Shown here one piece after another: positions 23,583 to 62,256 of a stretch of 64,000 nucleotides of DNA. The translations under genes were made by a program, and so were the position numbers. The notes under the pieces are model-generated. The model did not search any database. It was not told where the DNA came from and saw only the letters and a program-made list of their open reading frames with translations. The DNA is from Candidatus Falkowbacteria bacterium (GTDB taxonomy: Bacteria; Patescibacteriota; Patescibacteriia; XYB2-FULL-38-15): contig JACRNW010000001.1 of the NCBI GenBank assembly GCA_016214745.1, forward strand, positions 67,150 through 131,149, written 5' to 3'. How positions within the stretch are numbered: position 1 is the stretch's first letter; the number at the start of each line of letters is the position of its first letter.

Positions 23583-23960
23583 TTATTTACGGCCCTTAAA
23601 TTTCAAAATACTTGACCCCAAAAGATTTGCAATTTCCGTAACTTCGACCAATAACTTATTGATTGCGACCCTGTCTCCCTTACCGCTGTCGCGAAGTAAT
23701 GCCAACCAATATTTTGTTTCATTGGCAGATTTTAACGCGATATTTATAAAATTGGTGAAATCTTTTTTAGATCCACAGGCCTGTGCTTCAATAATATTTG
23801 CTCCAATGCTCGTTGCGCTACGAAGCATTTGTCTAACTATTACTTGGACGGAAAAATCCTTCTTATCAAGTTGATCTATAAATCGAATAATAGCCAAAGA
23901 AAACCTATAAACTTTTTCTTTTAGAAAAGTTTTATATTCTTTATTGTCCATAACTTTCAA
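23583..23960 (-). CDS. four-helix-bundle protein (23S rRNA intervening-sequence protein family, PF05635)
   Basis: Family-typical FSLAIIRFIDQL...RQMLRSATSIGANIIEAQAC...ALKSANETKYWLALL. Confidence 0.7.
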   Translation of the reverse strand: MKVMDNKEYKTFLKEKVYRFSLAIIRFIDQLDKKDFSVQVIVRQMLRSATSIGANIIEAQACGSKKDFTNFINIALKSANETKYWLALLRDSGKGDRVAINKLLVEVTEIANLLGSSILKFKGRK

Positions 23961-23998: not shown

Positions 23999-24658
23999 TC
24001 ACTTTTTCAATTCCTCCAGCTCGTTCTTCGCCGTGGTGTTTTCCGGATCAAGTTCAATCAACCGCTCATACCAGCGGATCGCCTCTTCTTCCGGTCCAAA
24101 ATCTTTGTAATAAATGGCAAGCGGCCCGACAAAATAAAGTTCATTTTCTGAATTGGCCTCCAGTCCTCTCTTTAAAATGCTCGGGATTTCAATTTTTCTT
24201 TCCGGCATTTGATAGCGGTAAAGATCAGCCAAACTGCGATAAGCGGCAAGCCACTTTGGATCACTTTCCATAACTTTCACGTAGGCGCCGGCGGCCTCGG
24301 CGTATTGTTCATTTCTGGTATAAAGTTCGGCAATATTCATTAAAAGCAATGTGTCGTCCGGCTTCACTTCTAGTGCTGATTCGTAAAGTTTAATCGCGTC
24401 TTCCAATTTGCCATTATCTTTTTTCCAGGCGGCAATTTTTATGTAAGCGCTTGTGTCTGACGGATCATTTTTTAAAGTGTCATAAGCCGCTTGAATATCC
24501 GCCGGCAGTTCTTCTTTTTCGCCGGAAAATAAAGAAACAACATAATTTCTAAGATCCCCCATCTTTCCCTGCCAACTCCAGGTTTTCCATGCAAATAAAC
24601 CGCCCGCGATTAAAATAATAACGACGACAATCAAAATAATTTTCAATTTTTTGGTCAT
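23999..24658 (-). CDS. membrane-anchored TPR-repeat protein
   Basis: N-terminal TM helix followed by several AxxxYxxAlxxxP TPR-like repeats. Confidence 0.6.
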   Translation of the reverse strand: MTKKLKIILIVVVIILIAGGLFAWKTWSWQGKMGDLRNYVVSLFSGEKEELPADIQAAYDTLKNDPSDTSAYIKIAAWKKDNGKLEDAIKLYESALEVKPDDTLLLMNIAELYTRNEQYAEAAGAYVKVMESDPKWLAAYRSLADLYRYQMPERKIEIPSILKRGLEANSENELYFVGPLAIYYKDFGPEEEAIRWYERLIELDPENTTAKNELEELKK

Positions 24659-24692
24659 AGGTTTTTGGATTTAGTTTATTTTTTAATATTTT

Positions 24693-24750
24693 GGGAGTCC
24701 TGCCTTTAGGCAGAGACTGGAGTTTGTCTCGCCCTAAAGGGCGGTCTCCG
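24693..24750. repeat. REP-like hairpin pair (types A and B) flanking the RAYT gene
   Basis: GGAGTCCTGCCTTTAGGCAGAGAC and GTCTCGCCCTAAAGGGCGGTCTCC. Each folds as a GC stem with a TTTA/TAAA loop. Type B is roughly the reverse complement of type A. Confidence 0.6.
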
Positions 24751-25285
24751 GTTCGTTAGTTATAAAATCAACAATCGGATATAATTCAAAACACGAGTCA
24801 AACCACTCTTCTCCTTTTATTTTACTCCAACTTTTCGCGCTTGAAAAGGGATAACCAAAAACGCCGACCAAATTTTTACAAAACCCATGTTTTATTGGAT
24901 TTTGGTGAATGTAATTAAAATGTTTCCAAAAATCCGCTTCGTCGCGGATTGAATGGTCAAAATATTGATACCAGATTTTACGGCCTTTCTCATTTTCCGA
25001 TTTATTTAATTCAAAAGAGCTTTTGCCGTTAATGAAGTTAATAAATTTAGATAAATTTTCTCCGTTAAAAATTTTAAACAACAAATGGAAATGATTATCT
25101 AACAACACCCAGGCGTATAAATGAATCTCAAATTTTCGGAGTCCTGCCTTTAGGCAGAGACAAAATAATTTCTTTTTAGAATCCATGTCAAAATATGGTT
25201 TCCGGTCCACAGTTCTCGCGGTAATAGAATAAATTGTGTTGTCGAAAAAAATATGTGGCGGATGGTGATGTTGCGAGTGAAGCAT
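24734..25285 (-). CDS. REP-associated tyrosine transposase (RAYT; IS200/IS605 Y1-transposase-like)
   Basis: IHLYAWVLLDNHFHLLF is the HuH motif. 183 aa, flanked by REP hairpins. Confidence 0.68.
   Translation of the reverse strand: MLHSQHHHPPHIFFDNTIYSITARTVDRKPYFDMDSKKKLFCLCLKAGLRKFEIHLYAWVLLDNHFHLLFKIFNGENLSKFINFINGKSSFELNKSENEKGRKIWYQYFDHSIRDEADFWKHFNYIHQNPIKHGFCKNLVGVFGYPFSSAKSWSKIKGEEWFDSCFELYPIVDFITNEPETAL
25139..25162. repeat. REP type-A copy lying inside the RAYT coding sequence (in frame, encodes LFCLCLKAGL)
   Basis: The 24-nt ggagtcctgcctttaggcagagac is identical to 24694-24717. Confidence 0.6.
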
Positions 25286-25293
25286 ATGGTTTT

Positions 25294-25401
25294 GGTCTCG
25301 CCCTAAAGGGCGGACTCCGGTGAAATTGAGAGACGGACTCCGGCTTGGAGTCCTGGCTTTAGCCAGAGACCATTGTCGTCTCGCCCTAAAGGGCGGCCTC
25401 C
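25294..25401. repeat. REP-like hairpin cluster (B, A-variant, B) on the other side of the RAYT gene
   Basis: ggtctcgccctaaagggcggactcc ... ggagtcctggctttagccagagac ... gtctcgccctaaagggcggcctcc, plus the GGACTCCggcttGGAGTCC palindrome. Confidence 0.6.
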
Positions 25402-25479
25402 AATTTTATTTTACCACAAAATCAAAGCGACCCGGTCGAATGACCGGGCCGCTTTTTTCTATATCAACGAATTCGGAGA

Positions 25480-28400
25480 TTAGTAGCTCAAGCTTCCGCC
25501 AGAGAGAGGCAGATTCTTGGTCGCTGGATACGTGCTTGACGCTGAACCAGTCCTATCGCCGACATCGGTGCCAGAGCTGTCACGATATGTCACACCATAA
25601 ACGGTGGTCATATTCGTGCCATCTGGACCAACAGTCATCTGGTAGGTCTTGGTTGAGAGAGCGCCAGTTGTGTCACCAAAGATTCTGATGACTTTCGTGG
25701 TGCCAGCCGCAACTTGGAGGTTGTTATCCGTAGTCCAAGCGCCAGCGCACAGATCGCCAGTGCCGTCAGCCGCGCCGACCGTACAACCGAAGATACCGAT
25801 TGATATTGTCGCAGCGGACTCAAGGCAGACGTTCGCAGACGCGCTGTAAGTGTTACAGTTCGCGCCTGTTAACGTGGCATAAGTTGTGCCAAGATCATCG
25901 CTCTTCACAGTGAGAGTGTCAGTACCAGTGATAGTCGCGGTACCGCCATTCTTCAATTCCAGTTCTCTGATGGTGACATCATCGCCAGTGGCAGTAAGGT
26001 TCAGTCTTAAGACTTCCTTATTGGAACCAGCGGTTTGAGTGCCGGAAGGTGAAGAAGCGTTCAAGCTGACAGTCAAGATACCTTTGTGAGCGCTGAAGCC
26101 GTTTGAACCGAAGTTCTGGGAGACGGCCGTCGTACCAACGCTGTTAATGGTATTTTTGTCAATCGTCGCGCCTGAAGATTGGCCAGTGGCGATTATCCAG
26201 TAGTCGCCGTTCACACCAGCCGCATCGGCCCAAGTATTATCTTTATTCTGGGTCGTACCAGCAGCGCCAGCGCACTCAATACCAATCTGGATGACAGCGC
26301 CGGAAGAAGTCGTCACCTGAGTCTTGTCAGGCAAATCGGCCTTCAGGGTGATAGTCTTGTAGCTATCCTTTGGAATGACCAAAGTTCCGCTATCCAAGAC
26401 GACTGAAGCGCGGCCGTTGGCATCCAAAGTGTAACCCGAGGTGTTGCCAACTAAGGCGCCGTCAGCGTAAACATAAAGTTTCGCGATGTTGCCTAAAGTG
26501 CAGGCAGTGCCAGCCTGGGCGTTATTACCGCAGTAGAGGCCGATTGTCGTCACGTCAACTGGCTCATATTGAGTGGTGAATTTGTATTTCGCCACTTCAT
26601 TGGCCATTGAAGACGAAACGAGCTGCGCGGCAGACGGCATATCAGCCGCCTTTTCAACCTTCAAAGTGCCTGACGCGCGGAGCGTCTGGGCTTGGCCAGC
26701 GCCAGTGACAGACTTGCTGGCAGTGTTGCCAGTTGTCGCGCCAATGGCTGTAACATCGCCACCTGCGGCGACGTTGAAGGCGTGAGTATCAGCAGTGCCG
26801 TCAGTATCCGCATCGTAGGCGGTTGTGACGTCAGCTTTCAAAGTCAAGCGAGAAATCGCAGTCTTTGAAACGACGATCGGGGTCTGGAAGGTGAAGGTCG
26901 TGGTGAGACCATTGGTCGCCGTTGAGTTGGAAGTGGCTAAGCGTTCGTTGACCACTGTGGCGTCAGTGTTGTCCGGATCGCCCCAGAGTTCAAGGTTGTT
27001 CAAACCAGTGTAGAGAGTGCAGGTCACAGGACCAGCAGCGGCAACGCAAGTGTCAGTCACTTTAACGGAGCTGACTCTAATATTTTCACCGCCGGCTGAA
27101 GCGTCAAGATCAAGATAAGCAAAGATCTGATCTTGAGCGTTAATCACCATGCTGCCAACGACCGGGGTCGCGGCTGTGGTAATTGCTAAGACCGGACCCT
27201 GCAAGGTCATAGTGTTGCCAGTAATAGCAGTAGCCGGAGGAACAACAGCGCCAGTTGAAGTGGTGTAAGTGGTTTTGCCGGAATTCGCGCCTTTGCCCGT
27301 AATAGCAGTGACCGCCATAGAAACAACAATCGTGTTGCCAGCAGTCATGTTCGTGGACAAATTCGCTTTGGCATAGACCACAGTTGTGCCAATCGGCAAG
27401 GTATAACCATCGGTGACGGTTAAAGTTTCCGCGCCCACGCTTGTGTGGGTGGTATCACCGTCTTTTGGACCAGCCAAAATGGTGCCATCAGCCTTGACCA
27501 ACGTGAAATTCGTCACGTTTGTTCTGATACCAGTGCCGGCAGTGCCCGTGCCATCAGCAGTAGTGTAGGTCACTATTGTCTGAGTGACATTGATCGGCTC
27601 GCCAGCCACGGTGAAATCAAAGGCCATCAAAGAAACGTTCGTTCCGCCGACCGGAATTTTACCGGTGGCTGGAGCTGAAGCGCTCTTTGAAACTGTTAAG
27701 TAGCCCTGATTGATGGTCTGTCTTTGACAGGTGTAATCGGTCACACCAGTGTCGCAGAAAGCAGTCGTATTGGTAAAGGTCGGAGCAATACCAAAGTTAA
27801 AGGTTCCGCCCTTTATCATGCCGGCGAATGATGTGCCATCATGAACGTCAAAGCCAATTGTTCTGCCAGAACCGCCAGCCATATCAGCCTTAATTGACAA
27901 TTCAACATAGGCGCCTTTGGCCACTGTCAAGTTCAGGCTTGAAAACACAGCTTTGCTGTTTGAATCCAAACCAGTGACAGTTCCTAAAGAAGTGCCAGCT
28001 GTATCATTGAAGAGTTCAATATTCTTGACATCGGTATTGGCAGCTGTGCCATTCTTGATGGCAGTGATCTGCTCAATAACCAACGGTTCGGTTGAACCAG
28101 CAGCGATTCTGATCTGTGAGAATCTGAAACCAACCGCGGCCGGATCAATTCCGACATCGCCTGACGAGGCGCCCGGATTTAACGGACCGCCAGAAATCGT
28201 GGCGCTGCCGATTGAAGTGTTGACCAAAGACATTGTGTTGCCGTTAACCGGGAATGTTCCGGAAACGGTCGCAGTGGTCGTAATGTCTGACGCGAGGGCA
28301 ATGCCCAAGACGTGCTGGTCAAACGCCGTCGCGACGGCAATATCAGCACCCAAAACAACCGCTTTTGTGGTGCCGGCCGAAACGACGATCGGGTTTGAAG

Positions 28401-41691: not shown

Positions 41692-42436
41692 AGCCCCAGT
41701 TCAGGGGCAGCGGATCAGCTGGACCAACTTGCATCGGCCCATTTGACCACATCTCGCACCCCGTCTGCTGGGGTGCAGGGATTTCCGGGGAGGGAGAAAC
41801 GGAAACCCCCACACTCTCCTCCTCGTCCGCCATGTGATGGCGGACTTACGAATTGTCCCTCCGGGAGGTTGCTACGGACGCTGGTTCCGCAGGTTGCAGC
41901 CGCCCAATCGGTTGTCGACGCTCCAGAATGCATCCGGAACGCCGCCAAGCGTGGCGCTGTGAGAACCCTGCAGAGTGCCGGGCGGGTAGGGACCAACGCA
42001 GCCCCAGAACGGCGGCGCAAGTTCGGCCACCGTCTGGTACTCAATGTACCAACCCGGATCGAGGGCCACGCTGAAGCAAACGGAGCTCACGCTCGTCGCC
42101 TCAACCAAGACGCTCCAGGGACCGGTGCAGACAAGACGGCCGTCAAGACCGTCAGTCGGACCCATGGAGATCGTCGTGCCGACGCAGCCTTCGATCGCGA
42201 TCCTCGGAGCGACGGCGCCCGCGTCCCAGCAGTGAGTGTACCTGCCGGGGCCGGTGCAGCCGTCGTCTACGACCGTGTCGCAGTCATCATCCGTCCCGTT
42301 GTCGCAGATCTCGGGGCGGACCACGGAGCAGCTCGTACTGCATCCGTTGTCGATGAAGCCGTCACAGTTGTCGTCCAACCCGTTGCCGCAGATTTCCGGC
42401 GGCACGGGTCCGCAGGTCCCGCAGGAGTTGAGTAAC

Positions 42437-42574
42437 CCTTCGTCGATCGAGCCGTTGCAGTCGTTGTCCACGCCGTCGCAGGTCTCGGGCGAACCCGCGA
42501 TCTCGCCGGCGCAGACGCCCCAGCGACCACCGCTGCAGGTCTGGGTACCACGGGCGCAAGCGCCCATGTCCGTC
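42437..42574. repeat. 138-bp repeat, identical to 43158-43296 (Cys-rich repeat unit)
   Basis: Direct comparison. Encodes ...TDMGACARGTQTCSGGRWGVCAGEIAGSPETCDGVDNDC in the true frame. Confidence 0.8.
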
Positions 42575-43157
42575 CGGCTGAGTGGTGCCGTCGACGCAGG
42601 AGCAACCCTCGTCGATGTCGCCGTCGCAGTCGTTGTCGATCGTGTCGCAGGATTCGGAAGCGGCCGGAGCGACGTAGCCGACGCAGACACCCCAGTAACG
42701 TCCGTCCGTGCACGTCTCGAGCCCACTCACGCAGGCCCCGAGGTCCGTCCCACAAGCTCGGGTTGCCCCGGGCGTGCAGATGCAGTCCTCATTGACGAGA
42801 CCGTTGCAGTTCTCGTCCAACGTGCCGGTGCAAACTTCCGGGGCGGGTCCGACGAAACCGGTGCAAGCGTTCCAGCGGCCCATGACGCAAGTCTGGGTTC
42901 CGCGAGAGCACTCGCCCGTGTCGTCGCCGCAGGGCTGGGCCGTACCGTTCACGCAAGAACAGCCCTCGTCCACTTCGGTGTCGCAGTCGTTGTCCAGCGT
43001 GTCACAGGTCTCGGGGGCAGGAGGCAGGAAGCCCACGCCGCCGCAGTCGGACCACTGTCCGGCTCCGAACCCGTTGTTCAAACAGGTCCGGGTCCCCATG
43101 ACGCACTCGCCGAGGTCGGTACCGCACGACTCGGAAACGCCGATGGTGCAGGTGCAC

Positions 43158-43296
43158 CCTTCGTCGATCGAGCCGTTGCAGTCGTTGTCCACGCCGTCGC
43201 AGGTCTCGGGCGAACCCGCGATCTCGCCGGCGCAGACGCCCCAGCGACCACCGCTGCAGGTCTGGGTACCACGGGCGCAAGCGCCCATGTCCGTCC
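43158..43296. repeat. 138-bp repeat, second copy
   Basis: Identical to 42437-42574. Confidence 0.8.
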
Positions 43297-44766
43297 TCCG
43301 CGAGGAGCGGATCACAGACCTCGGTGTCGGGGGCGATACCCGTGCAGTCGCTCCAGAATCCGCCAATGCAGAACTGGGCACCGAGCGTGCACTCACCCAT
43401 CTCCTCGCCGCAGAGGCGAGAAGAAGTTCCGACGCACTCGCAGCCTTCGTCGATCGTGGTGTCGCAATCGTTATCCACGCCGTCGCAGGTTTCGGAGGCG
43501 GGACCCGTGCCAAGGCACAGTCCCCAGTGACCGCCCATGCAATACTGGAGGCCGGTGGCGCAGGCGCCGATGTCCGTACCGCAGACGCGACCGTCGCCGG
43601 ACCGACATTCGCAGTCTTCGTCGATCGAGCCGTCGCAGTCGTTGTCCGAGCCGTCGCAGTACTCCGGGGTCACGACGCCGCAGGAGCCGCACGCATTGAG
43701 CAGCCCCTCGTCGACGCGACCGTCGCAGTTGTCGTCGAAACCGTTGCAGATCTCGGCCGACGGAAAGTGCTGGGGCTGACATGGGCCGTAACCCGAGTCA
43801 TCCGCCAGACAGAACATCCGACCCTCGGCACAAGCGCCGAGGAATCCCGGAATCATGCAGTCGATCGGCAGGCCGGTGTGATCGCAGGCGCAGCTCTCGT
43901 CGACTCGTCCGTCGCAGTTGTCGTCCACGCGGTTGCCGCAGACTTCCGGATTCTCATCCGGCCGAGTCGTGGGCTCGCAGACGTCGGAGTAACCCGATCC
44001 GTCCGCGAGACACCGCATCTCGCCGACCGCGCAGACGCCGGGAATGAGGGTGTTGCAGGGAATGACGTCGCCCAGGGGGCAAACGCCCTCGCCGCACACA
44101 CCGTCTTCGTCGGTCTCGCCGTCGCAATCGTTGTCCACGCCGTCGCAGGTCTCGGTCGTGCCGGCGCAATCCGGCGTGCCGGCGCAGTGGCCGGTCTCGT
44201 CGCAGTACATGCCGAGCGAACAGTCGATGAACGCATTGCAGATCGCGCGGCACTCGCCGCGGAAGCACTCTCCGACTTCGCAGTCGGAGTCCGAGGTACA
44301 CTCGTACCCCGCGTAGAAGGTGGTGCCCCCGCCGCCGCAGCCGAAGCTCGCGGCGCCGAGCACCGTGGTACACACGCACACCAAGATCCAGTTCGTCCAG
44401 TTCCTCATGTTCTCCCTTTCCATCTTCCTGTCCCTCCTCTTGTGCGGTGGAGCCGCACGCGGCAGATCCGCCGCCAAAAACCGAACTACCAACGTCAATA
44501 CCGTGCCTTGTTTACGGCACGGCAAACTCCTCCGCACGGATGTGCGAAGGAGAGATTACCAAAATTCCTAATTGTCAACGAACAGCAGTTTTTGACCTTT
44601 TATCTTTATTTCACAACAAGAAAGAGGGTTTTTATCCCCCTCCTTCTCGGTCAAAAACCGCACACTATAATTTAACATAAACTACAAATTTGTCAAGAGG
44701 ATAAAACAAAAACAGAGGATTTGACCCCTGCTTTGTTAAAACGTTTTATTCTTTATTTTTTTACTG

Positions 44767-46085: not shown

Positions 46086-46469
46086 TGGTGGAGATGGCGG
46101 GAATTGAACCCGCGTCTAGAAGTCTTCGACAAAACGAATCTACAAGTTTAGCTAAATTAAATTTTTAAAACACAAGGTATAAATTTAGCAAAATCCTTGT
46201 GCCCGAGGCCTATTAATTTTCAAAAATTTCTCTAAGCCAAAGAAATTTTCTATCTCGGTTATGACACCGGGACCCGCCTACCGAGAGTCGGCGGCCGATG
46301 TGCCGCGGCTAGTTAAGCCGTGGCAGGAGCAAAGCTCGGAACGCGAAAAGCGCTCTTTACCTTGTTAAATAAGTTTGCACTTATTGATTTTGCCAAAGTT
46401 TTGCGAGATTGTGGCAATACTCGACTTGCTCATTTTGTAAAGAACTCCTATCGAGGCCTGTCATCCCCA
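46086..46469 (-). ncRNA. ssrA: tmRNA (transfer-messenger RNA)
   Basis: 3' end ...GACGCGGGTTCAATTCCCGCCATCTCCACCA (T-arm plus acceptor with encoded CCA). A candidate 5' end GGGGATGACAGGCCTCGATAGG pairs with the 3' acceptor strand. Directly follows smpB. About 384 nt. I could not resolve the tag reading frame. Confidence 0.6.
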
Positions 46470-51732: not shown

Positions 51733-52265
51733 TAAATGTCTGATAAAAATAGTTCGTTTTAAACTAAAGGCAAATTGCGTTTTTCCGCTTGAATAAAGGC
51801 CTTTATAGATCCCCGAAGCTGTTTGGCTTGGCAAATTTTAGTGGTAATTGGCTTATATTGAGAAGCCAGATTTACCCTCGTTCTTTATCAATCACCAGGC
51901 CAAACGACTCTGGGGTTCTATGGCAGTACTTTTGCGGCGAACCACAGTTTAAAGAGTAAAAGTTATAAAAAAGTTGAAATGATAGAGAGTGCTTTCTACA
52001 TTAGTCCACTTCTCTTAAACTGCGGTTTCCTGCAAAGGATGGTACTTTGACAAATTGAATAACAACGGGCTTTAGCTCTCCGCCGACGAAGCGGATTGAT
52101 GCGCGCCTGATGAAATAGAGGGATAAAATCCTCTTTCTCAGGCTTAGGCCTGTTGACGATATATAAAACAAAACCCCCGGAGCGTGGTTGTTCCGGAGGT
52201 TACAAGTTTGGACACCATAACCGGCTTCGCGAGACGCGGGGCCAACGAAGGGAAGGAGTTCCTAG

Positions 52266-53090
52266 ATGACGAAGACCTTCGCGACGATGTTCGTGTTCGC
52301 GATGCTCTGCGTCCCGGCGATCGCCGAGGCGCAGCAGCAACTGGCCGATGGCGAGGCGCGTGCGCTCGTTTGCGGACCCGGAGAAATCCAGGTCTGCACC
52401 GAGACGCAGGCCGACGGCTCGGCTCCCCGGGTCATGTACCTGAGGGGAAGCCCGGTCATCGACTGCGTAGTTCGTTCCGAGACCGGAATCCAGCTCGAAT
52501 GTGTGAAATGGGAAGACGCCTGCAAGCGGGAATCCTGCGACAGGCGCGGCGGAAACTGGCACTGGGATGAGAGCTCGTGTCACTGCGACTACGAACGGCC
52601 GAGGGAAAGCCCTCCGCCGTCCGCGCCGCCAGCTCAGCCTCCGGGCCCGACGACGCCTCCGGTTCAACCCGGCCCGACGCCGACCTGCCCGGACTGCAAC
52701 GTGAGCCTCACGGTCTGTCCGAACGAGGAGATCGCGAGACTCGCGAACGAGCTTGCGCCTCTGGCGCAGGTCGCTCCCGAGACCTGGATCGTCCGGTCCG
52801 ACACGGATGAACTGAGGACGCGAGTCCTCTACATCCGCGATCGGGCGGCGGTGTGCGGCGAAGATAGAATCTTCGTCGACGCCGAGCGAGTACTGGCGGC
52901 AATGACGCCGCCGGAACCGAGTACGCTCCCATCGGGACCGCCGATGTCGAGCTACGAGGACGAGGAGAACTTCTGCACCAATTCGTTCGGCGGCGTACTG
53001 GTGTGCATCGTGCTGCCGACCGTGGCGGCCGGTGCCGCCATCTTCCTCGGTGTCTGGTTTGGCACCGAGTGGGAAGCGACCCAGGAGTAG
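52266..53090 (+). CDS. secreted Cys-containing Pro-rich protein with a C-terminal TM anchor
   Basis: GGAAGGAG RBS. Signal peptide MTKTFATMFVFAMLCVPAIAEA. PPPSAPPAQPPGPTTPPVQPGPTP linker. C-terminal TM helix. Confidence 0.55.
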   Translation: MTKTFATMFVFAMLCVPAIAEAQQQLADGEARALVCGPGEIQVCTETQADGSAPRVMYLRGSPVIDCVVRSETGIQLECVKWEDACKRESCDRRGGNWHWDESSCHCDYERPRESPPPSAPPAQPPGPTTPPVQPGPTPTCPDCNVSLTVCPNEEIARLANELAPLAQVAPETWIVRSDTDELRTRVLYIRDRAAVCGEDRIFVDAERVLAAMTPPEPSTLPSGPPMSSYEDEENFCTNSFGGVLVCIVLPTVAAGAAIFLGVWFGTEWEATQE

Positions 53091-53172
53091 TGTTCGTCAA
53101 CCCGGGGTCGGCGAGGCGGAAGCCCGTCGACCCCACAGAAGCTTCTGCCCCGAGAGGGCAGGGAGGGATGAG

Positions 53173-54183
53173 ATGAAGAACGTGAACCTGTTCGGGCTGT
53201 TCGTGTGCGTGATGGTGCTGGCGTCCTGTCAGGACGTCCAGCTCCCCGATCCGATCCACGTGTGTGAGGACAGCAACAACGACGACGTTTGCGACGGCGA
53301 CCAGGACGGCGATTCCGTCCCCTGGCAGTACGACAACTGCCCGCGGGCCGACAACCCCGACCAGGCCGACTGCGACGGCGACGGGATCGGCGACGCCTGC
53401 GACGACTTCGACAACCGGGATGCCGGCGCCGATGCGGACGCGGATGCGGATGCGGATGCGGATGCGGACGACTACGAGGGCGACGAGCCCGGCGAGTGTA
53501 CGGACGACGCGGACAACGACCGCGATGGTCGCTTCGACTGCGACGACCCGGGCTGCGTGAGCGATCCGGCGTGCGTCGCGGCTCCGTTCTGCGGCGATCA
53601 CGCCTGCAACGACAGCGAGACCTGCGCGAGCTGCCCGGCCGACTGCGGCATCTGCTCGGCAACCTGCGGCGACTGGGTATGCAACGGTTCCGAGACGTGC
53701 GCGACCTGCGCTCACGACTGCGGCACCTGCCCGGCGCCGATCTGCGGTGACGGCATGTGCAACGGCACCGAAACCTGCGAGACGTGCGCGTCCGACTGCA
53801 CCGGTTGCGCCGGCGACATCTTCGTCACGATCCGCGTGACCTCGTCTGACGCCTACCCCGCCGAAATTCATGTCTACTTCGCCGCTGATCCCCGGGATGT
53901 GGATGGCACCGACTCGGGCATGGCTCCCTACCAGACCAGTTTGACCCAGGCTCAGGCCTGCGGCCGAGTGGAAGGGGTGGAGGTCAGCGCCCGTCAGTTC
54001 TCGACGGCCGACCGCCCGTGGTACGGAACGCTCGGGATCCTAGGTCGTCTGACGATCCAGGTGAACGGCGTCGCCTACCCGGATGCGGCTGCTGGTCGTG
54101 CGGCTCTGCCGCTGATCGACCAGCCGTGGGGCGACCCCAACATCCATATCTCCCGGGCAGTTCTCCACTGCCCCGGTTCGTAG
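53173..54183 (+). CDS. lipoprotein with thrombospondin type-3 Ca-binding repeats and four CGDxxCNGxETCxxCxxDCGxC Cys-rich repeats
   Basis: Start MKNVNLFGLFVCVMVLASC (LASC lipobox). DGDQDGDSVPWQYDNCPRADNPDQADCDGDGIGDACD is a TSP3 repeat. Contains a (DA)n tract. Confidence 0.62.
   Translation: MKNVNLFGLFVCVMVLASCQDVQLPDPIHVCEDSNNDDVCDGDQDGDSVPWQYDNCPRADNPDQADCDGDGIGDACDDFDNRDAGADADADADADADADDYEGDEPGECTDDADNDRDGRFDCDDPGCVSDPACVAAPFCGDHACNDSETCASCPADCGICSATCGDWVCNGSETCATCAHDCGTCPAPICGDGMCNGTETCETCASDCTGCAGDIFVTIRVTSSDAYPAEIHVYFAADPRDVDGTDSGMAPYQTSLTQAQACGRVEGVEVSARQFSTADRPWYGTLGILGRLTIQVNGVAYPDAAAGRAALPLIDQPWGDPNIHISRAVLHCPGS
53431..53472. repeat. hexanucleotide microsatellite (GATGCG/GACGCG)x7 encoding (DA)n
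   Basis: gatgcggacgcggatgcggatgcggatgcggatgcggacgac. Confidence 0.85.
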
Positions 54184-54295
54184 ACCAACCAACAACTTAC
54201 CTGTTTAGTCCCTTGTCCCGACGCAAGTCGGAACAATAACAGGCAAGTCCAACAACCACAGACGCGACCTAGGGCGGTTGCGACTGCTTCGACAA

Positions 54296-54333
54296 GGCCA
54301 GCTTTCCTCCGGATTGCTGGCCTTCTTTTTTTA
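54296..54333 (+). terminator. rho-independent terminator
   Basis: GGCCAGCtttcctccggattGCTGGCC then TTCTTTTTTTATT. Confidence 0.6.
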
Positions 54334-54452
54334 TTATCAAGCGAGTGAGACCCCGGCAAGGCGGGACGAGCGAGCGCAGATAACACGGAGTATTTAAAAG
54401 TAATATTTTTAATTTAATCTCGTTTTAATACAAACTGGCCAAAACCAGTGTT

Positions 54453-54494
54453 TTGTCACACAACCTTGACAAATCCGGCATTCCGTTGTAATCT
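54453..54494 (+). promoter_or_regulatory. sigma-70-type promoter (TTGACA-17-TAATCT) overlapping the palindrome TTGTCAcacaaccTTGACAA
   Basis: -35 at 54466-54471. A second hairpin CTGGccaaaaCCAG sits just upstream. Confidence 0.45.
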
Positions 54495-54592
54495 ATAATG
54501 TTAGTTCATTGAACAACCCTTGCCGCAAGGCGAGGTAAAAATATAGTAAGTAGTTCACCTAAACTAAACATGCCGTCAAGGAGGGAAACAAG

Positions 54593-56311
54593 ATGGCAGA
54601 GAAGAAGAGTGGTGGCCTGCACTCTCCGATCGACGGCCGGCTAATCGCCGGGCGTTACAAGGTCGTAGATCCCGAACCTATCGGCCGGGGCGGCATGGGT
54701 CTCGTCTATCGCGGTTTCGACATCCGCACGAAGAGATCCGTTGCCATCAAGATTCTGCACGAGCAGTTCCACGGTATGCCCGACGTGGTTGCTCGGTTCC
54801 GCACGGAAACCGATGCGGTGAACCGTGTCGGCCACGAAGGCATTGTTGTCATCCTGGACTGTGCCCAGCCGGAAGAAACTCCGGTCTTCTTCGTCATGGA
54901 GTACCTGGACGGGAAAACGCTCGCCCAAGTGCTCGACGAGAATGGCCAGAGAGGCAAGCCGCTTCACGTCCAGCACATCCGCTACATCGGCTTGAAGCTT
55001 CTCGAGACGCTGGAAGCGGTCCACGAAAGCGGAATTATCCATCGCGACCTGAAGCCGGAAAACGTCTTCATCCTCGGGCTGCTAAGCAAGCGATATCGCG
55101 TCAAGCTTCTCGACTTCGGGATCGCGAAGTTCAAGGAAGCCGATCCCAAGCTGACTCAGGTGGGCACGATAGTGGGCACGCCCCTTTACATGTCACCTGA
55201 ACAGTGTCGGGGCCTCCCCGTCGACTACCGAACCGACCTCTACGCGATCGGCTGCATCCTCTACGAGATGGCAACCGGCCGACCGCCTTTCGTGGGCGAC
55301 CTGAGCGAAGTCCAACAGGGTCACCTCTCTCGTCTCCCGGAAGCTCCGAACGATCTGAACGGGGAAATCCCTCCGGCGCTCAACGCGGTCATCATGACGG
55401 CACTAGCTAAGGAACCGGACAACCGATTCCGCGACGCCGAAACCATGCGCGAAGCGCTCGAAGACGCCGTCCCCGAGGACAAGATGTTCTGGCGGGACAG
55501 CCGGCCGCCTTCGCCGGTGAACGGCAGCAGGGTGCTCGCCACTCCGCCGCGCATTCCAACCGCGATGGAGGATCAGCCAACGTCAGAGCGGCTCGACTCG
55601 TCTAAAACCCCGACTCGTCTGCTCGCTGACAAGCGGCCGCCGGCCGGGATCGCCTTGGCGAAAACCATGACTCCGGCTGACCTGAAACGGGCAGTTGATG
55701 AGGAGACGGCGCACCAGTTCGCCAAGAACTTCGGCGTCTGGATCCTGAAGCCCTCGAGTCGGGCGGCAGTGATCGCGATCGGCAGTACCCTCCTCATCCT
55801 CACCATCGTGTTCGTTCTTCTCGCGGCTTACCCGCCCAACACCGGCAAGCGCGCAAGAACGGCCGACGCTGGCGTCGAGGTCAGCACGACGGCGGTTGTC
55901 GTTTCCGAGAAGGAAACTCCTCCGCAGCCGAGCGGCCAGCCCGACGTCATCGTCCTGCCAGTTCCGGTTCCAGTTCCTCGGGACGACGCGACAACCGACG
56001 AGCCGAACGAAGTCGTCGAGATGGACGCAGTAGAAACTGCGGCCAACGCTGGCCCACCGGACGGCTACGCCGAACTACTCGCGGCGGCGGAACACGCCAG
56101 GAACTGGCGCACGGCCGTCGGAAGACTCGAGGAGGCAACAGAACTCTGGCCTGAAGGACCAGATGCCTGGAAAGAACTGGGCAACGTCTTCATGATGCAT
56201 GGGGAAATTCGGAAGGCCAGAGAAGCCTTCCGGACATGCCTCGACCTTCTGCCTCCGGACGCGTTCGTCCAGCGGGCACAAGTGGAGGGACGACTCAGGG
56301 GCCTGCAATAG
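54593..56311 (+). CDS. Hanks-type serine/threonine protein kinase with a C-terminal TM segment and a TPR-like tail
   Basis: GGAGGG RBS. GRGGMGLVYRG (P-loop), VAIK, HRDLKPENVFI, DFGIAKF, GTPLYMSPEQ. A TM helix near residue 400. Confidence 0.85.
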   Translation: MAEKKSGGLHSPIDGRLIAGRYKVVDPEPIGRGGMGLVYRGFDIRTKRSVAIKILHEQFHGMPDVVARFRTETDAVNRVGHEGIVVILDCAQPEETPVFFVMEYLDGKTLAQVLDENGQRGKPLHVQHIRYIGLKLLETLEAVHESGIIHRDLKPENVFILGLLSKRYRVKLLDFGIAKFKEADPKLTQVGTIVGTPLYMSPEQCRGLPVDYRTDLYAIGCILYEMATGRPPFVGDLSEVQQGHLSRLPEAPNDLNGEIPPALNAVIMTALAKEPDNRFRDAETMREALEDAVPEDKMFWRDSRPPSPVNGSRVLATPPRIPTAMEDQPTSERLDSSKTPTRLLADKRPPAGIALAKTMTPADLKRAVDEETAHQFAKNFGVWILKPSSRAAVIAIGSTLLILTIVFVLLAAYPPNTGKRARTADAGVEVSTTAVVVSEKETPPQPSGQPDVIVLPVPVPVPRDDATTDEPNEVVEMDAVETAANAGPPDGYAELLAAAEHARNWRTAVGRLEEATELWPEGPDAWKELGNVFMMHGEIRKAREAFRTCLDLLPPDAFVQRAQVEGRLRGLQ

Positions 56312-56316
56312 GCCCT

Positions 56317-56368
56317 GGGGCAACCACGCAAGATGTCAAACATCAAGCGTGGCTGCCCCTCTTTTTTA
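56317..56368 (+). terminator. rho-independent terminator
   Basis: GGGGCAaccacgcaagatgtcaaacatcaagcgtggcTGCCCC then TCTTTTTTATTTT. Confidence 0.6.
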
Positions 56369-56383
56369 TTTTATAAAAAAACC

Positions 56384-56412
56384 TTGACAAAAAAATACTT
56401 TTGTGGTTAGAT
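56384..56412 (+). promoter_or_regulatory. putative promoter (CCTTGACA-17-TTAGAT)
   Basis: -35 TTGACA at 56384-56389. The -10 is weak. Confidence 0.35.
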
Positions 56413-56474
56413 ATAAAGTGCTCTAAATGGGCGCAAGGGGGAGGCACGGGGCCTCCCTTAGATTTTAGGAGGGA

Positions 56475-57563
56475 ATGGAGATGAGGTTCATCACCCTGAT
56501 CGTGGCGGTTCTTTTCGCCCAGAACGCGTTTGCCCAGACGTCGGAGTCGACCGAGCAGACGGAGCAGTCCGCTGCGCCGGTCATCCTCGGCGAAGCCGGC
56601 AACGCGGCTCTCACGAGCTGCCTCGAAGCGGACGACGGGACCCAGTGCTGCACCGACTACGGCGACTGCGTGCAGAATTTGGGAGACAACTCCGAGCAGT
56701 GCGCTGCGGTCGCCCGACTGTGCGGGCACCAGGATCTCGACGCCGCCATGCGGGAAGGCTGCCAGCAGCGGAACGCGATCGTACAGGGCAGCGAATGCGC
56801 CTGCGCCGCGGGCTTGAGCTGGAACAACGAAAGCGACAAGGTTTGCTGCACAGCAAACCCCGCCACCTACGAACGCCGGCGAAACGCCTGCGAGCATTCC
56901 GGCGGAACCTACCACTGCAACAGCCGGGGCGGATGGTGCGGCTGCCCACTCGGCATGAGCCACCCGATCGAAGAGGATGGCGATGTCGACTACTCCTCCT
57001 GCACCGGCGAAGCGGTGAACCGCGAACGGCTCCAGGCGATGCGAGACAACATCGCGACTCTTACTGCCGAGGTCGAGGAAGCCGGACAACAGATCGCCGC
57101 CCTCCAAGCCGAGCGTGACGCCCTTCGAGCGCAGCTCGACCAGACTCTCAGTCAGCTGGCCGAGCTGGACAACCTCGAGGACACGGTCGGCGAGATGGAA
57201 CAACGGCTCGCCGAGATGGATGCCGAACTCTCGTTCTTGCGTCACCTGCGCGACCAGTACGAGGAATTCATCGCTCGGCAGGCGCAGACGATCGCCGATC
57301 TTGGCGGAATTCCTCCTCTCCCTCCGGGCATTCCGGAAGAGGATGAACCCCTCCCGGGAACAGCGGCGGCGGTCGCGGAAGCGGCAGGCGGAAGCCGGCC
57401 CGGACCGATGGAGCCACTACCCCCTCCCGAAGAGGAAGAGGGCAACTGGTGCTCCGAAAACGGCTGGGCATGCGCCGGTATCATCATCGGCGCAGCAGCC
57501 GCATTGGCCGGGGCAACCGTCGGGATCGTGGAGGCGACCCGCGACATTCAGGTCACTCAGTAG
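56475..57563 (+). CDS. secreted Cys-rich protein with a long coiled coil and a C-terminal TM anchor
   Basis: Signal peptide MEMRFITLIVAVLFAQNAFA. 16 Cys in the N-terminal domain. Heptad-like region LQAMRDNIATLTAEVEEAGQQIAALQAERDALRAQLDQ... C-terminal GIIIGAAAALAGATVGIV. Confidence 0.55.
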   Translation: MEMRFITLIVAVLFAQNAFAQTSESTEQTEQSAAPVILGEAGNAALTSCLEADDGTQCCTDYGDCVQNLGDNSEQCAAVARLCGHQDLDAAMREGCQQRNAIVQGSECACAAGLSWNNESDKVCCTANPATYERRRNACEHSGGTYHCNSRGGWCGCPLGMSHPIEEDGDVDYSSCTGEAVNRERLQAMRDNIATLTAEVEEAGQQIAALQAERDALRAQLDQTLSQLAELDNLEDTVGEMEQRLAEMDAELSFLRHLRDQYEEFIARQAQTIADLGGIPPLPPGIPEEDEPLPGTAAAVAEAAGGSRPGPMEPLPPPEEEEGNWCSENGWACAGIIIGAAAALAGATVGIVEATRDIQVTQ

Positions 57564-57592
57564 TTCTCGGGATTTCCTCCACCCGAGGACCA

Positions 57593-57641
57593 GGCCGACG
57601 TTTTGAGACAATCGTGTCTCGGACGTCGGCCTTTTTTTATC
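57593..57641 (+). terminator. rho-independent terminator
   Basis: GGCCGACGttttgagacaatcgtgtctcggaCGTCGGCC then TTTTTTTT. Confidence 0.65.
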
Positions 57642-57642
57642 T

Positions 57643-57684
57643 GTCAACTCCCCTTGACAAAACTTAAAAAATATGGTATATTTA
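57643..57684 (+). promoter_or_regulatory. sigma-70-type promoter (TTGACA-17-TATATT) overlapping the palindrome CTGTCAActccccTTGACAa
   Basis: -35 at 57656-57661, -10 at 57679-57684. The element closely matches the 51691 element. Confidence 0.5.
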
Positions 57685-57877
57685 CTTGTTCTGAAACGAA
57701 TGGAAAACAGTATCTACATAAACAAAATTGGATCCTGTAGTAGTTTGGTTTGATACCTGGGTTGCCTCCTCCTCAACCTCTTGGTTTTCAAATCAAACTA
57801 CTCAAGGACCCAACAAAATTGGTCCAAGCAACTCGGGATGGGTCCCGGGTTGAGAGAGTTTGGAAAGGAAAGCGCTG

Positions 57878-58984
57878 ATGGCGAATGGCAACAAGGTCTC
57901 AAGCTCCCTCCAGATTACCGGCCTGAAGCCCGACATCACGGAAGAGAAAATCCGTAGGGCTGTCGGCGAAATCGTCGGAGTGGGGCAGGACGGGATCTCC
58001 AACGTGGATATCCGGCGACGCGAAGATGGCAGGCCCGAGGAGCGAGGCGCGAATGCCGTCGTCGCCTTCAAGGATGTCGCAACGGCGACGGTGGCGAAGG
58101 CGGGACTTGGCGCAGGCAAGCTGTGCAGAATCCCCGACCTGAATCCCGACCGCGAGATCATGGCCGACTTCTACTTTCCTCCGCGGCCGCGCGACGAGAG
58201 GCCGCCGGCCACACCCCCACCCGCCGCACCCTCGATCGATCCGAACCAGCTTACGGCCATTGTGGCCGAACTCGAGGCCAGGCTCAAGGCCGACGCCGGA
58301 TTTCTGGCGAAGGTCAGGGGCAAGGACGGCGTAGCGCCGACGAAGGACGAGATCGTCGCGGCCCTCCGGTCCTTCCTGGTCACCGACCTCAAGGCTGCTC
58401 TGGCCCCGGTGCTGAAGGTTGACCTCAAGAACGACCCGACCTTCCAGGACCTGATCAAGGGCACTCCCGGCAAGGACGGCCCCGCGAAGGATGAAGTCAT
58501 CGCGGCGCTCAAGGCCGACGCCTCCTTCAAGGCGGAAGTCAAGGGCGAGAAGGGCGATGACGCACCCCGGTGGCCTCACTGGGTCTTGGTGGTTTTTGCC
58601 ACCTTGGCGTTCATCGTCATGCTCGGCCACCTCGTCTGCGGAAGCAGCGGCGACCAGGGTCCGCAGGGCGTCCAGGGCCAGGTCGGTCCCCAAGGTCCGC
58701 AAGGGCCCAAGGGCCCGATCGGACCGCGTGGTCCCGAAGGCTCCCAGGGTCCGCAGGGCGAACCCGGAGCCGCGGCGACCACAACGGTCGCACCGGCGCC
58801 GAGCGCGGAGCCGCCCGTCGAACCGGCGGCCACGGCGCCGCCCAGCCAGGCAACGCCGACGGGACGGCCCAACATCACGGAAGTGGATGGGCGCGAGCTC
58901 ATCCGCCACCAGCTGGACGACGTGTCCGTCCTATTCCGTGAGATCGATCGGAGGACCCGGCAACTGGAGGAAGCGCGCCAGTAG
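57878..58984 (+). CDS. membrane-anchored collagen-like (13 x G-X-Y) protein with GKDG...DEIVAAL repeats
   Basis: ATG at 57878 (MANGNK). TM helix [59 protein letters not shown]. Repeated GKDG(V/P)A(P/K)(T)KDE(I/V)(V/I)AAL(R/K) units resemble phage tail-fibre-like repeats. Confidence 0.58.
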
Positions 58985-62062: not shown

Positions 62063-62180
62063 GGATTTGAAGACTCCTCGGTGCAATCCTCGGCGCCGCA
62101 AAAAGGATTTAAGGGAGAGTATTCTCTCCAATCTGCTCAATTTGACAAACCAATCGCAAAAGCGATTGCTTTGTCAAAAC

Positions 62181-62256
62181 GGGTCCGAAGGGATTTGAAC
62201 CCTCGATCTTCTCCGTGACAGGGAGACGTGTTAGACCGGGCTACACCACGGACCCA
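62181..62256 (-). tRNA. tRNA-Asp (anticodon GTC)
   Basis: GGGTCCGTGGTGTAGCCCGGTCTAACACGTCTCCCTGTCACGGAGAAGATCGAGGGTTCAAATCCCTTCGGACCCG. 7-bp acceptor, GTGT/ACAC D stem, TCTCC/GGAGA anticodon stem with loop CTGTCAC, T-arm GAGGG-TTCAAAT-CCCTT. CCA is not encoded. Confidence 0.85.

Follow-up and report, generated by a model that had tools for sequence, protein, structure and literature searches.

The stretch of Candidatus Falkowbacteria DNA analyzed here (64 kb, positions 67,150 to 131,149 of contig JACRNW010000001.1, hereafter the window) contains a gene for a REP-associated tyrosine transposase (RAYT, also called TnpAREP) surrounded by repetitive extragenic palindromic (REP) hairpins, an arrangement referred to as a REPtron. 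The RAYT gene is located at 24734-25285 on the minus strand and encodes a protein of 183 amino acids. The protein contains the HUH histidines H65 and H67 (motif NHFHLL) and the catalytic tyrosine Y125 (motif NYIHQNP), in agreement with the original prediction of a 183-aa Y1 transposase with NHFHLL. Six palindromic units of 24 nt, all located within 24694-25401, accompany the gene. Five of them flank it in both orientations, at a distance of no more than 117 nt, while the sixth lies inside the gene. In what follows, WIN denotes the RAYT of the window, L-numbers denote compared loci, and P-numbers denote homologous proteins.

The repeats belong to two types. Type A, GGAGTCCTGCCTTTAGGCAGAGAC, is present as exact copies at 24694-24717 and 25138-25161; a third copy, at 25347-25370, contains two mismatches, both in the stem and mutually compensatory (CTGGC/GCCAG). 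Type B, GTCTCGCCCTAAAGGGCGGNCTCC, occurs at 24726-24749, 25295-25318, and 25378-25401. All six units had been correctly recognized in the original prediction, although each lies one base lower than first given. The two types had also been described as mutually inverse, which is true of their orientation, but type B has a different self-complementary stem (GCCC/GGGC, compared with TGCC/GGCA in type A). Read from the GGAG end, the unit consists of GGAG, two bases, a 5-bp stem, a TTTA loop, the return stem, and (A)GAC. The stem is rich in G+C, and its sequence is free provided that pairing is maintained. Control calculations with 100 dinucleotide-preserving shuffles gave an expected number of matches of 0.00 per pattern, for types A and B alike. 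A relaxed scan of the 64 kb, based on a perfect 5-bp hairpin with a TAAA or TTTA loop or on paired flanking 'foot' motifs, detected no further REP copies in the rest of the window.

The units are arranged as two inverted doublets (24694-24749 and 25347-25401), a monomer upstream of the start codon, a remnant, and the intragenic copy. The 64-nt doublet at 24694-24749 folds as single-stranded DNA with an energy of -14.2 kcal/mol (z = -3.4). Its outer half, the type A unit at 24694-24717 on the plus strand, is located just downstream of the RAYT stop codon and matches the type A pattern exactly (foot GGAG, spacer TC, stem CTGCC/GGCAG, loop TTTA, and final AGAC). The inner half, the type B unit at 24726-24749, has its GGAG foot on the minus strand and the stem CGCCC/GGGCG, and it overlaps the end of the RAYT open reading frame (ORF), namely the stop codon and the five codons before it. 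A REP overlaps the 3' end of the RAYT gene in L121 and L127 as well. On the other side, the type B monomer at 25295-25318 (minus strand) ends 9 nt upstream of the start codon, and a REP occupies the equivalent position in L117, L118, L127, and L128. The remnant, found by reading the sequence and belonging to repeat family D3, is located at 25330-25341 and lacks a hairpin: GAGAC directly abuts GGACTCC, so that of a REP just the two outer parts are left. It may be the footprint of a hairpin deletion or of a cut-and-rejoin event. The distal upstream doublet is formed by the type A variant with the compensated stem (25347-25370, plus strand) and a type B unit (25378-25401, minus strand) located 7 nt from its partner. 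Distal doublets are also found in L118 and L121, and doublets with 2-nt spacers in L012, L019, L022, and L032. A terminator-like hairpin of 14 pairs (25424-25455, minus strand) closes the upstream gene, which encodes 1269 amino acids, and bounds the REPtron. Rfam scans of positions 24000-26000 (E up to 1) and of the whole window (gathering scores) returned nothing at the repeats, and a promoter scan revealed no convincing RAYT promoter in the upstream REP cluster. The GC content of the window is 47%, and the RAYT gene alone is AT-rich (34.6% GC); consequently, the earlier description of a 'low-GC genome' is inaccurate.

The 183-aa protein is a RAYT and not an IS200 transposase. It matches Pfam Y1_Tnp and scores 101.4 bits against the NCBIfam model REP_Tyr_transpos (NF047646, cut-off 80), while the IS200 model (NF033573) gives 21.8 bits, below its cut-off of 55. 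Among solved structures, the only meaningful sequence match is Escherichia coli TnpAREP (4ER8). The AlphaFold model (pLDDT 89) leads to the same protein: in a fold search, 4ER8 ranks first (E 1.3e-10, TM 0.65/0.72), with an alignment of 175 columns that runs nearly end to end and takes in the region beyond the Y1 catalytic core. The transposases of IS608 and ISDra2 follow at E of about 1e-6 over about 105-125 columns. This comparison, which had been proposed as a check of the original prediction, was thus decided in favor of a RAYT. Among 29 sequences, H65, Y125, and the NP.KHG motif are invariant, and H67 is conserved in at least 90%. Sequence comparison also shows that W105, D110, H111, and R114 correspond to W94, E100, H101, and R104, the residues of the E. 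coli enzyme that read the GTAG foot. A change from E to D at this foot-reading position has been reported for subclasses 2.5 and 2.7 (PMC6006769). Wherever the names of the 90 homologues give a source, it is Patescibacteria, Falkowbacteria, or Magasanikbacteria, the exceptions being one WOR-3 protein and generic names such as 'putative transposase'.

Within the window, the RAYT gene is present in one copy. Orthologues with 66-85% identity occupy a matching genomic context, with a recurring neighborhood that includes a large surface protein, the RAYT, a 220-aa TPR protein, and a Big_1/Invasin_D3 protein. This neighborhood recurs in L117, L118/L119, L121, L123/L124, and L130, the last of which is collinear with the window over about 20 kb at 72-81% nucleotide identity. 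On the shorter contigs L120, L125, and L129, the only shared neighbor visible is the TPR gene, and in L128 the RAYT is found in a different genomic context. Housekeeping-like behavior is a defining trait of RAYTs (PMC5581495). The RAYT gene is a domesticated, single-copy, vertically inherited gene and not an insertion sequence. The opposite view, in which the locus is an insertion sequence of the IS200/IS605 family that moves as a whole and has the hairpins as its ends, would account for the Pfam Y1_Tnp match, for the subterminal hairpins on each side of the gene, and for the secondary fold matches to the IS608 and ISDra2 transposases. It is nevertheless highly improbable. The IS200 equivalog score falls well below its cut-off where the RAYT model is passed, and the structural model spans 4ER8 over a distinctly longer alignment than it does IS608 or ISDra2. 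In addition, there is a single copy in the window, the neighbors are retained although the flanking genes are just 72-81% identical in nucleotides, and the hairpins are found in either orientation and as doublets, vary in number, and also lie far from any transposase gene.

The collinear locus L130, from the closest syntenic genome, also shows a mosaic structure. When L130:10001-10663 is compared with window positions 24734-25285, the two RAYT genes share 86% of their nucleotides in the 3' half, more than the neighboring genes do, and the 5' half of the L130 gene has no detectable DNA similarity to the window gene. The breakpoint lies near window position 25010. The REPs flanking the RAYT of L130 belong to another family, GGAGTAGCGAAATGAACGAAGTGAATTTCGCG. 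Because both the 5' half and the REPs differ, the REP family was apparently swapped along with the N-terminal half of the enzyme. The internal REP was considered as a recombination breakpoint of mosaic RAYT genes and rejected, since the exchange between 5' and 3' halves lies around residues 88-100.

The repeat family extends to other genomes of the candidate phyla radiation (CPR). In many of the 80 metagenomic loci with RAYT relatives, 5-bp hairpins with TAAA/TTTA loops are clustered no more than about 250 nt from the gene. Each REP family has its own foot (GGAGTC, GTAGCC, GAGTAG, or GGAATT), and GTAG feet are found at the related CPR loci L043, L049, and L058. When one genome per species was scanned with a strict REP pattern, 36 loci matched, of which nine CPR genomes contributed 28. 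The variable stem triplets are perfectly complementary in 30 of the 35 strict CPR matches, representing nine different stems, compared with none of the eight chance matches in other phyla. Similarity to RAYTs, and that weak, was detected at just one of the 36 loci; the repeat copies are therefore dispersed. The commonest dispersed stem is TGCC (9/30), which equals the stem of the internal REP, and 17 of 40 hairpins in the CPR relatives lie within long open frames. The original prediction of a RAYT flanked by REP hairpins with one copy inside agrees with the RAYT model, the 4ER8 match, the synteny, the hairpin clusters of the relatives, and the dispersal of the repeat family in other CPR genomes. 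A genuine REPtron in the CPR, with a RAYT flanked by REP hairpins and one copy within the gene, is supported.

The dispersed copies are often found in housekeeping genes. REP units or doublets lie in frame inside the genes for SecA, TrmD, ribosomal protein L4, PheT, TsaE, Mpg, and a GT4 glycosyltransferase of CPR genomes (L007:544-567, L012:5571-5620, L014:6129-6152, L002:3142-3191, L021:3627-3650, L026:1490-1513, and L017:1380-1433). They encode peptides such as GVRPLGRDxSLPKGRTP and similar ones. Pfam domains extend to either side of every such insert, and the solved homologues of TrmD and L4 have a gap precisely where the CPR REP insert sits.

The sixth unit of the window is an exact type A copy inside the RAYT gene (plus strand, 24/24 identical to 24694-24717). 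An in-frame copy of this kind had been predicted and is present, at 25138-25161 rather than 25139-25162. The strand with the GGAG foot is the antisense strand of the RAYT gene. On the sense strand, the element reads (T)GT CTC TGC CTA AAG GCA GGA CTC (C), corresponding to codons C42-R50, and encodes (C)LCLKAGL(R). These residues form part of helix alpha-A (residues 35-51 of the AlphaFold model, pLDDT about 98), upstream of the HUH motif. An alignment with 28 homologues shows no gap or length change at codons 42-50. Consequently, the internal REP is not an insertion, contrary to a possibility raised earlier.

Relatives with identities as low as about 50% retain the internal REP at the same position of the gene. 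It is identical at 24 of 24 positions in L117, L118, and L127, at 23 in L125 and L128, and at 22 in L126, while the orthologues that retain it have whole-gene nucleotide identities of 64-83%; L127 and L128 have 56-61% of their amino acids in common with the window protein. An internal copy with the loop TAAG is found at the alpha-A site of L131 as well. In distant homologues (L039-L077, at most 50% identity), no REP-like match was found at alpha-A. When the REPs flanking each gene were scanned against that gene, the best match fell at the alpha-A site in nine loci. In four pairs between the WIN group (WIN, L117, and L118) and L127/L128, the internal REP is the longest identical run, with lengths of 22-29 nt compared with 10-17 nt for the next best. 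The same is true of the pairs WIN-L117 and WIN-L118, and between L127 and L128 the run ties with another of 26 nt. Pairwise run-length permutation gave p = 0.004-0.04. Moreover, the only CTC (twice), CTA, TGC, and GCA codons of the gene all fall within the internal REP. A hairpin in L056 that had been taken for an internal copy was rejected, because it is a REP overlapping the 3' end of the gene.

The pairing of the internal hairpin was analyzed using ten distinct internal sequences and five stem pairs. All 50 pair cells are paired, and three of the five stem pairs show compensatory changes. The covariation score is 0.396, compared with 0.216 in shuffles, none of the 500 shuffles reaches 0.396, and slid controls collapse. 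Each double change at the internal stem combines a synonymous substitution with a non-synonymous one. In L038, the internal element is CAGCC-TGAA-GGCTG-AATTCC, which combines the stem of the locus's own flanking REP with the foot of that REP's inverse type, at the cost of C-to-S, G-to-E, and L-to-F replacements in the protein. The internal sites of L123 and L129 pair solely as G-T on the sense strand. Because these two look like decaying copies, no reference strand was deduced from the G-T pairs. Judged from these sequence comparisons, a constraint on the internal REP at the nucleotide level is likely. The element is dispensable, as some lineages have lost it.

The interpretation that best fits these results is that of a single-copy, vertically inherited RAYT located among its cognate REPs, with an internal REP that is old, held at the nucleotide level, and tracks the cognate family. 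This interpretation is probably correct; the following observations weigh against it. The loop of the internal copy varies (TAAA, TGAA, and TAAG). The match between internal and flanking stems comes from one lineage, L038, and the internal stem is unlike the local flanking stems in L037, L127, L128, and L121. The internal REP has decayed in L123 (14/24) and L129 (17/24). The run-length permutation tests are of moderate significance and mutually non-independent. Synonymous conservation across all ten orthologues places the REP codons at rank 44 of 180 windows; three lineages without the site diluted this test, and for this reason pairwise run-length permutation and structure counts were used. 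The amino acids CLKAGL are themselves conserved, so that selection at the protein level confounds the signal. Other points concern the repeat family as a whole. The foot is GGAG, located 2 nt from the stem, whereas the canonical foot is GT[AG]G, and copy number in the CPR relatives is low: no genome has more than eight strict matches, which lie on separate contigs. Since the remaining 63 kb of the window are free of REPs outside the REPtron, dispersal is shown in relatives only.

Many of the same points would be expected if the REPtron were real but the internal 'REP' had no function at the DNA or RNA level. In that case, CLKAGL would be conserved for the sake of the protein, and the palindrome would be an old accident decaying neutrally, for instance a short patch copied by gene conversion from the REP that immediately precedes the start codon. 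The amino acids are indeed conserved wherever the nucleotides are, the site shows decay in L123 and L129 and partial decay in L125 and L126, the window-wide synonymous rank is unremarkable, the internal stem is often unlike the local flanking stems, and the G-T pairs are explained by C-to-T transitions, which are the most frequent type of change. This explanation is possible but doubtful. All eight codons are identical between genes with about 60% amino-acid identity, in pairs that share just about 57-61% of codons at conserved residues, and the segment is the longest identical run in those comparisons. The codons used are absent from the rest of the gene. Three of the five stem pairs underwent double changes that preserved pairing, each with a synonymous and a non-synonymous member, and in L038 the G-to-E and L-to-F replacements turn the foot into that lineage's own REP foot. 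A different origin would be a true in-frame insertion of the kind known from subclass 2.4, with the gene targeted through its nearby REPs and the insert persisting because it was harmless. Insertions of this kind have been reported (PMC6006769) and do occur among the relatives: L130 carries its own, different REP in frame after the HUH motif (SSEMNEVNFA), L125 (191-216) has an N-terminal in-frame REP (GNTLKGVTP), and P0017, P0020, and P0025 have extra segments of the TPQGGVTP type after strand beta-1. For the window copy, such an origin is very unlikely. The segment adds no length relative to the 28 homologues, including those without REP-like sequence there, so an exactly compensating deletion of 24 nt would be required. 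It also lies upstream of the HUH motif inside the conserved, confidently modeled helix alpha-A and not in a loop, and the L-K at the loop position is common to more distant homologues.

A truncated relative of the RAYT, P0034, was also noted. It lacks about nine residues (KNIFCLCLK) relative to P0004, with the deletion ending in the loop of the internal REP, and an upstream REP is translated at its miscalled N-terminus (GLCLKAGL). The deletion may be hairpin-associated.

A mechanism can be outlined by analogy with the TnpAREP systems of E. coli, Stenotrophomonas, and Marinomonas (PMC3333891, PMC3479197, PMC8266576). The RAYT would recognize the foot and loop of a folded, single-stranded REP, bind there, and subsequently cut and rejoin adjacent DNA using Y125 and the HUH metal site. 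REP doublets would spread at low copy number and, in compact genomes, would often enter genes in frame. On the preferred reading, the internal REP would act as a cis site for the RAYT in its own gene. Speculatively, the RAYT could bind or cleave this site in a self-limiting manner, or the internal REP could be a copy sheltered by selection at the protein level that re-seeds the family. The predominance of TGCC among the dispersed stems fits the latter, master-copy idea, without being a test of it. A more specific proposal is that one subclade of CPR RAYTs has its recognition element written in the alpha-A codons, where it co-evolves with the extragenic REPs and provides self-feedback or a master copy. 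This proposal is tentative and more probably wrong than right. If it were true, a master copy would explain why the identical 24-mer GTCTCTGCCTAAAGGCAGGACTCC, which carries the commonest stem type, is found across distantly related CPR lineages. The internal REP, together with the frequent in-frame REPs in essential genes, would then make CPR genomes distinctive for REP-RAYT biology.

Among known systems, one of those closest to the locus is the REPtron of E. coli K-12 (y/z REPs, BIMEs; 4ER8; Ton-Hoang 2012, Messing 2012). Common features include an HUH/Y1 enzyme with the RAYT-specific C-terminal part, a single-copy gene at a fixed chromosomal site, flanking REP monomers and inverted doublets, a conserved 5' tetranucleotide foot followed by a hairpin, and the retained foot-reading residues W, (E/D), H, and R. 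In contrast to E. coli, the REP here is much shorter; its 5-bp stem pairs perfectly, without a bulge, and closes a fixed TTTA loop; the foot, GGAG, is located 2 nt from the stem; copies in CPR relatives number tens at most rather than hundreds; one REP lies inside the coding sequence; and the host belongs to the CPR. The geometry of the repeat resembles that of Group 3, subclass 2.5 (Stenotrophomonas and REPMb of Marinomonas MWYL1; Corneloup 2021, Quentin 2018), with its short perfect palindrome and a foot 1-2 nt from the stem. In that subclass, foot, spacer, and stem together span 10-13 nt (PMC6006769), compared with 11 nt here. The TTTA loop is the same as in Marinomonas REPMb, and D replaces E100. 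Loop positions 1 and 4 of the Marinomonas REP are needed for cleavage (PMC8266576). The likeness to subclass 2.5 is one of geometry and residues only: the subclass has been described as largely limited to xanthomonads and pseudomonads, and the foot here is GGAG.

A REP within its own RAYT gene, described as unusual in the original prediction, is not without precedent. In-frame REP insertions in RAYT genes are typical of subclass 2.4 (RAYT group 4; Quentin et al. 2018, PMC6006769), where a cognate REP likewise lies in the RAYT reading frame and leaves the frame intact, and the insertions in the relatives L130 and L125 are of that very kind. The window copy differs from them in being non-insertional, located in conserved alpha-A codons upstream of the HUH motif, conserved across orthologues, and covarying. 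Accordingly, an in-frame REP in a RAYT is already known, and a non-insertional, conserved REP inside the RAYT frame, in the CPR, is new. Rickettsia palindromic elements (RPEs) and other intragenic REPs (Di Nocera et al. 2013, PMC3733652) are also small palindromic repeats in frame in functional genes, a likeness that belongs to the genomes of the CPR relatives and not to the window; RPEs, at about 100-150 bp, exceed the REP in length, and no RAYT is known for them. RAYTs had been regarded as mainly proteobacterial, although they are documented well beyond Proteobacteria (PMC5581495, PMC6006769). A literature search for RAYTs or REPs in Patescibacteria or the CPR, and for RPEs in Parcubacteria, found no relevant paper.

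The main model for domesticated transposases is provided by REP-RAYT systems, which play the same role for long-lived repeat populations that are inherited vertically. The question to which this locus speaks is how an enzyme and its repeat remain matched over long times. If the internal REP does change together with the flanking family, it would provide a physical link between the two. The locus also extends REPtrons to the CPR, which lay outside earlier surveys of complete genomes. In gene-dense CPR genomes, repeats become peptide insertions in essential proteins such as SecA, TrmD, and L4, which matters for protein annotation and modeling. Should the internal copy be a neutral relic, the locus would be an ordinary REPtron in a new host group.

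Several other features of the window were recorded. Between the TPR and Big_1 genes, a gene for a four-helix-bundle '23S rRNA intervening sequence protein' is located at 23583-23960 (minus strand); the equivalent slot contains a GIY-YIG gene in L117 and is empty in L118. In L121 and L130, several genes for '23S rRNA intervening sequence proteins' lie beside genes for large surface proteins, and one per locus also matches bAvd. Base composition is uneven, with 59-66% GC at 42001-44000 and 52001-58000 compared with about 37-52% elsewhere. These high-GC stretches contain long overlapping open frames on both strands, including an ORF at 54563-56311 for a Ser/Thr protein kinase with a weak, sub-threshold TPR match and one at 57854-58984 for a collagen-repeat protein. 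The high-GC stretches may be foreign DNA or a mis-join. Rfam additionally identified a tmRNA gene at 46086-46468 (minus strand, 166 bits) and a tRNA gene at 62180-62255 (minus strand).

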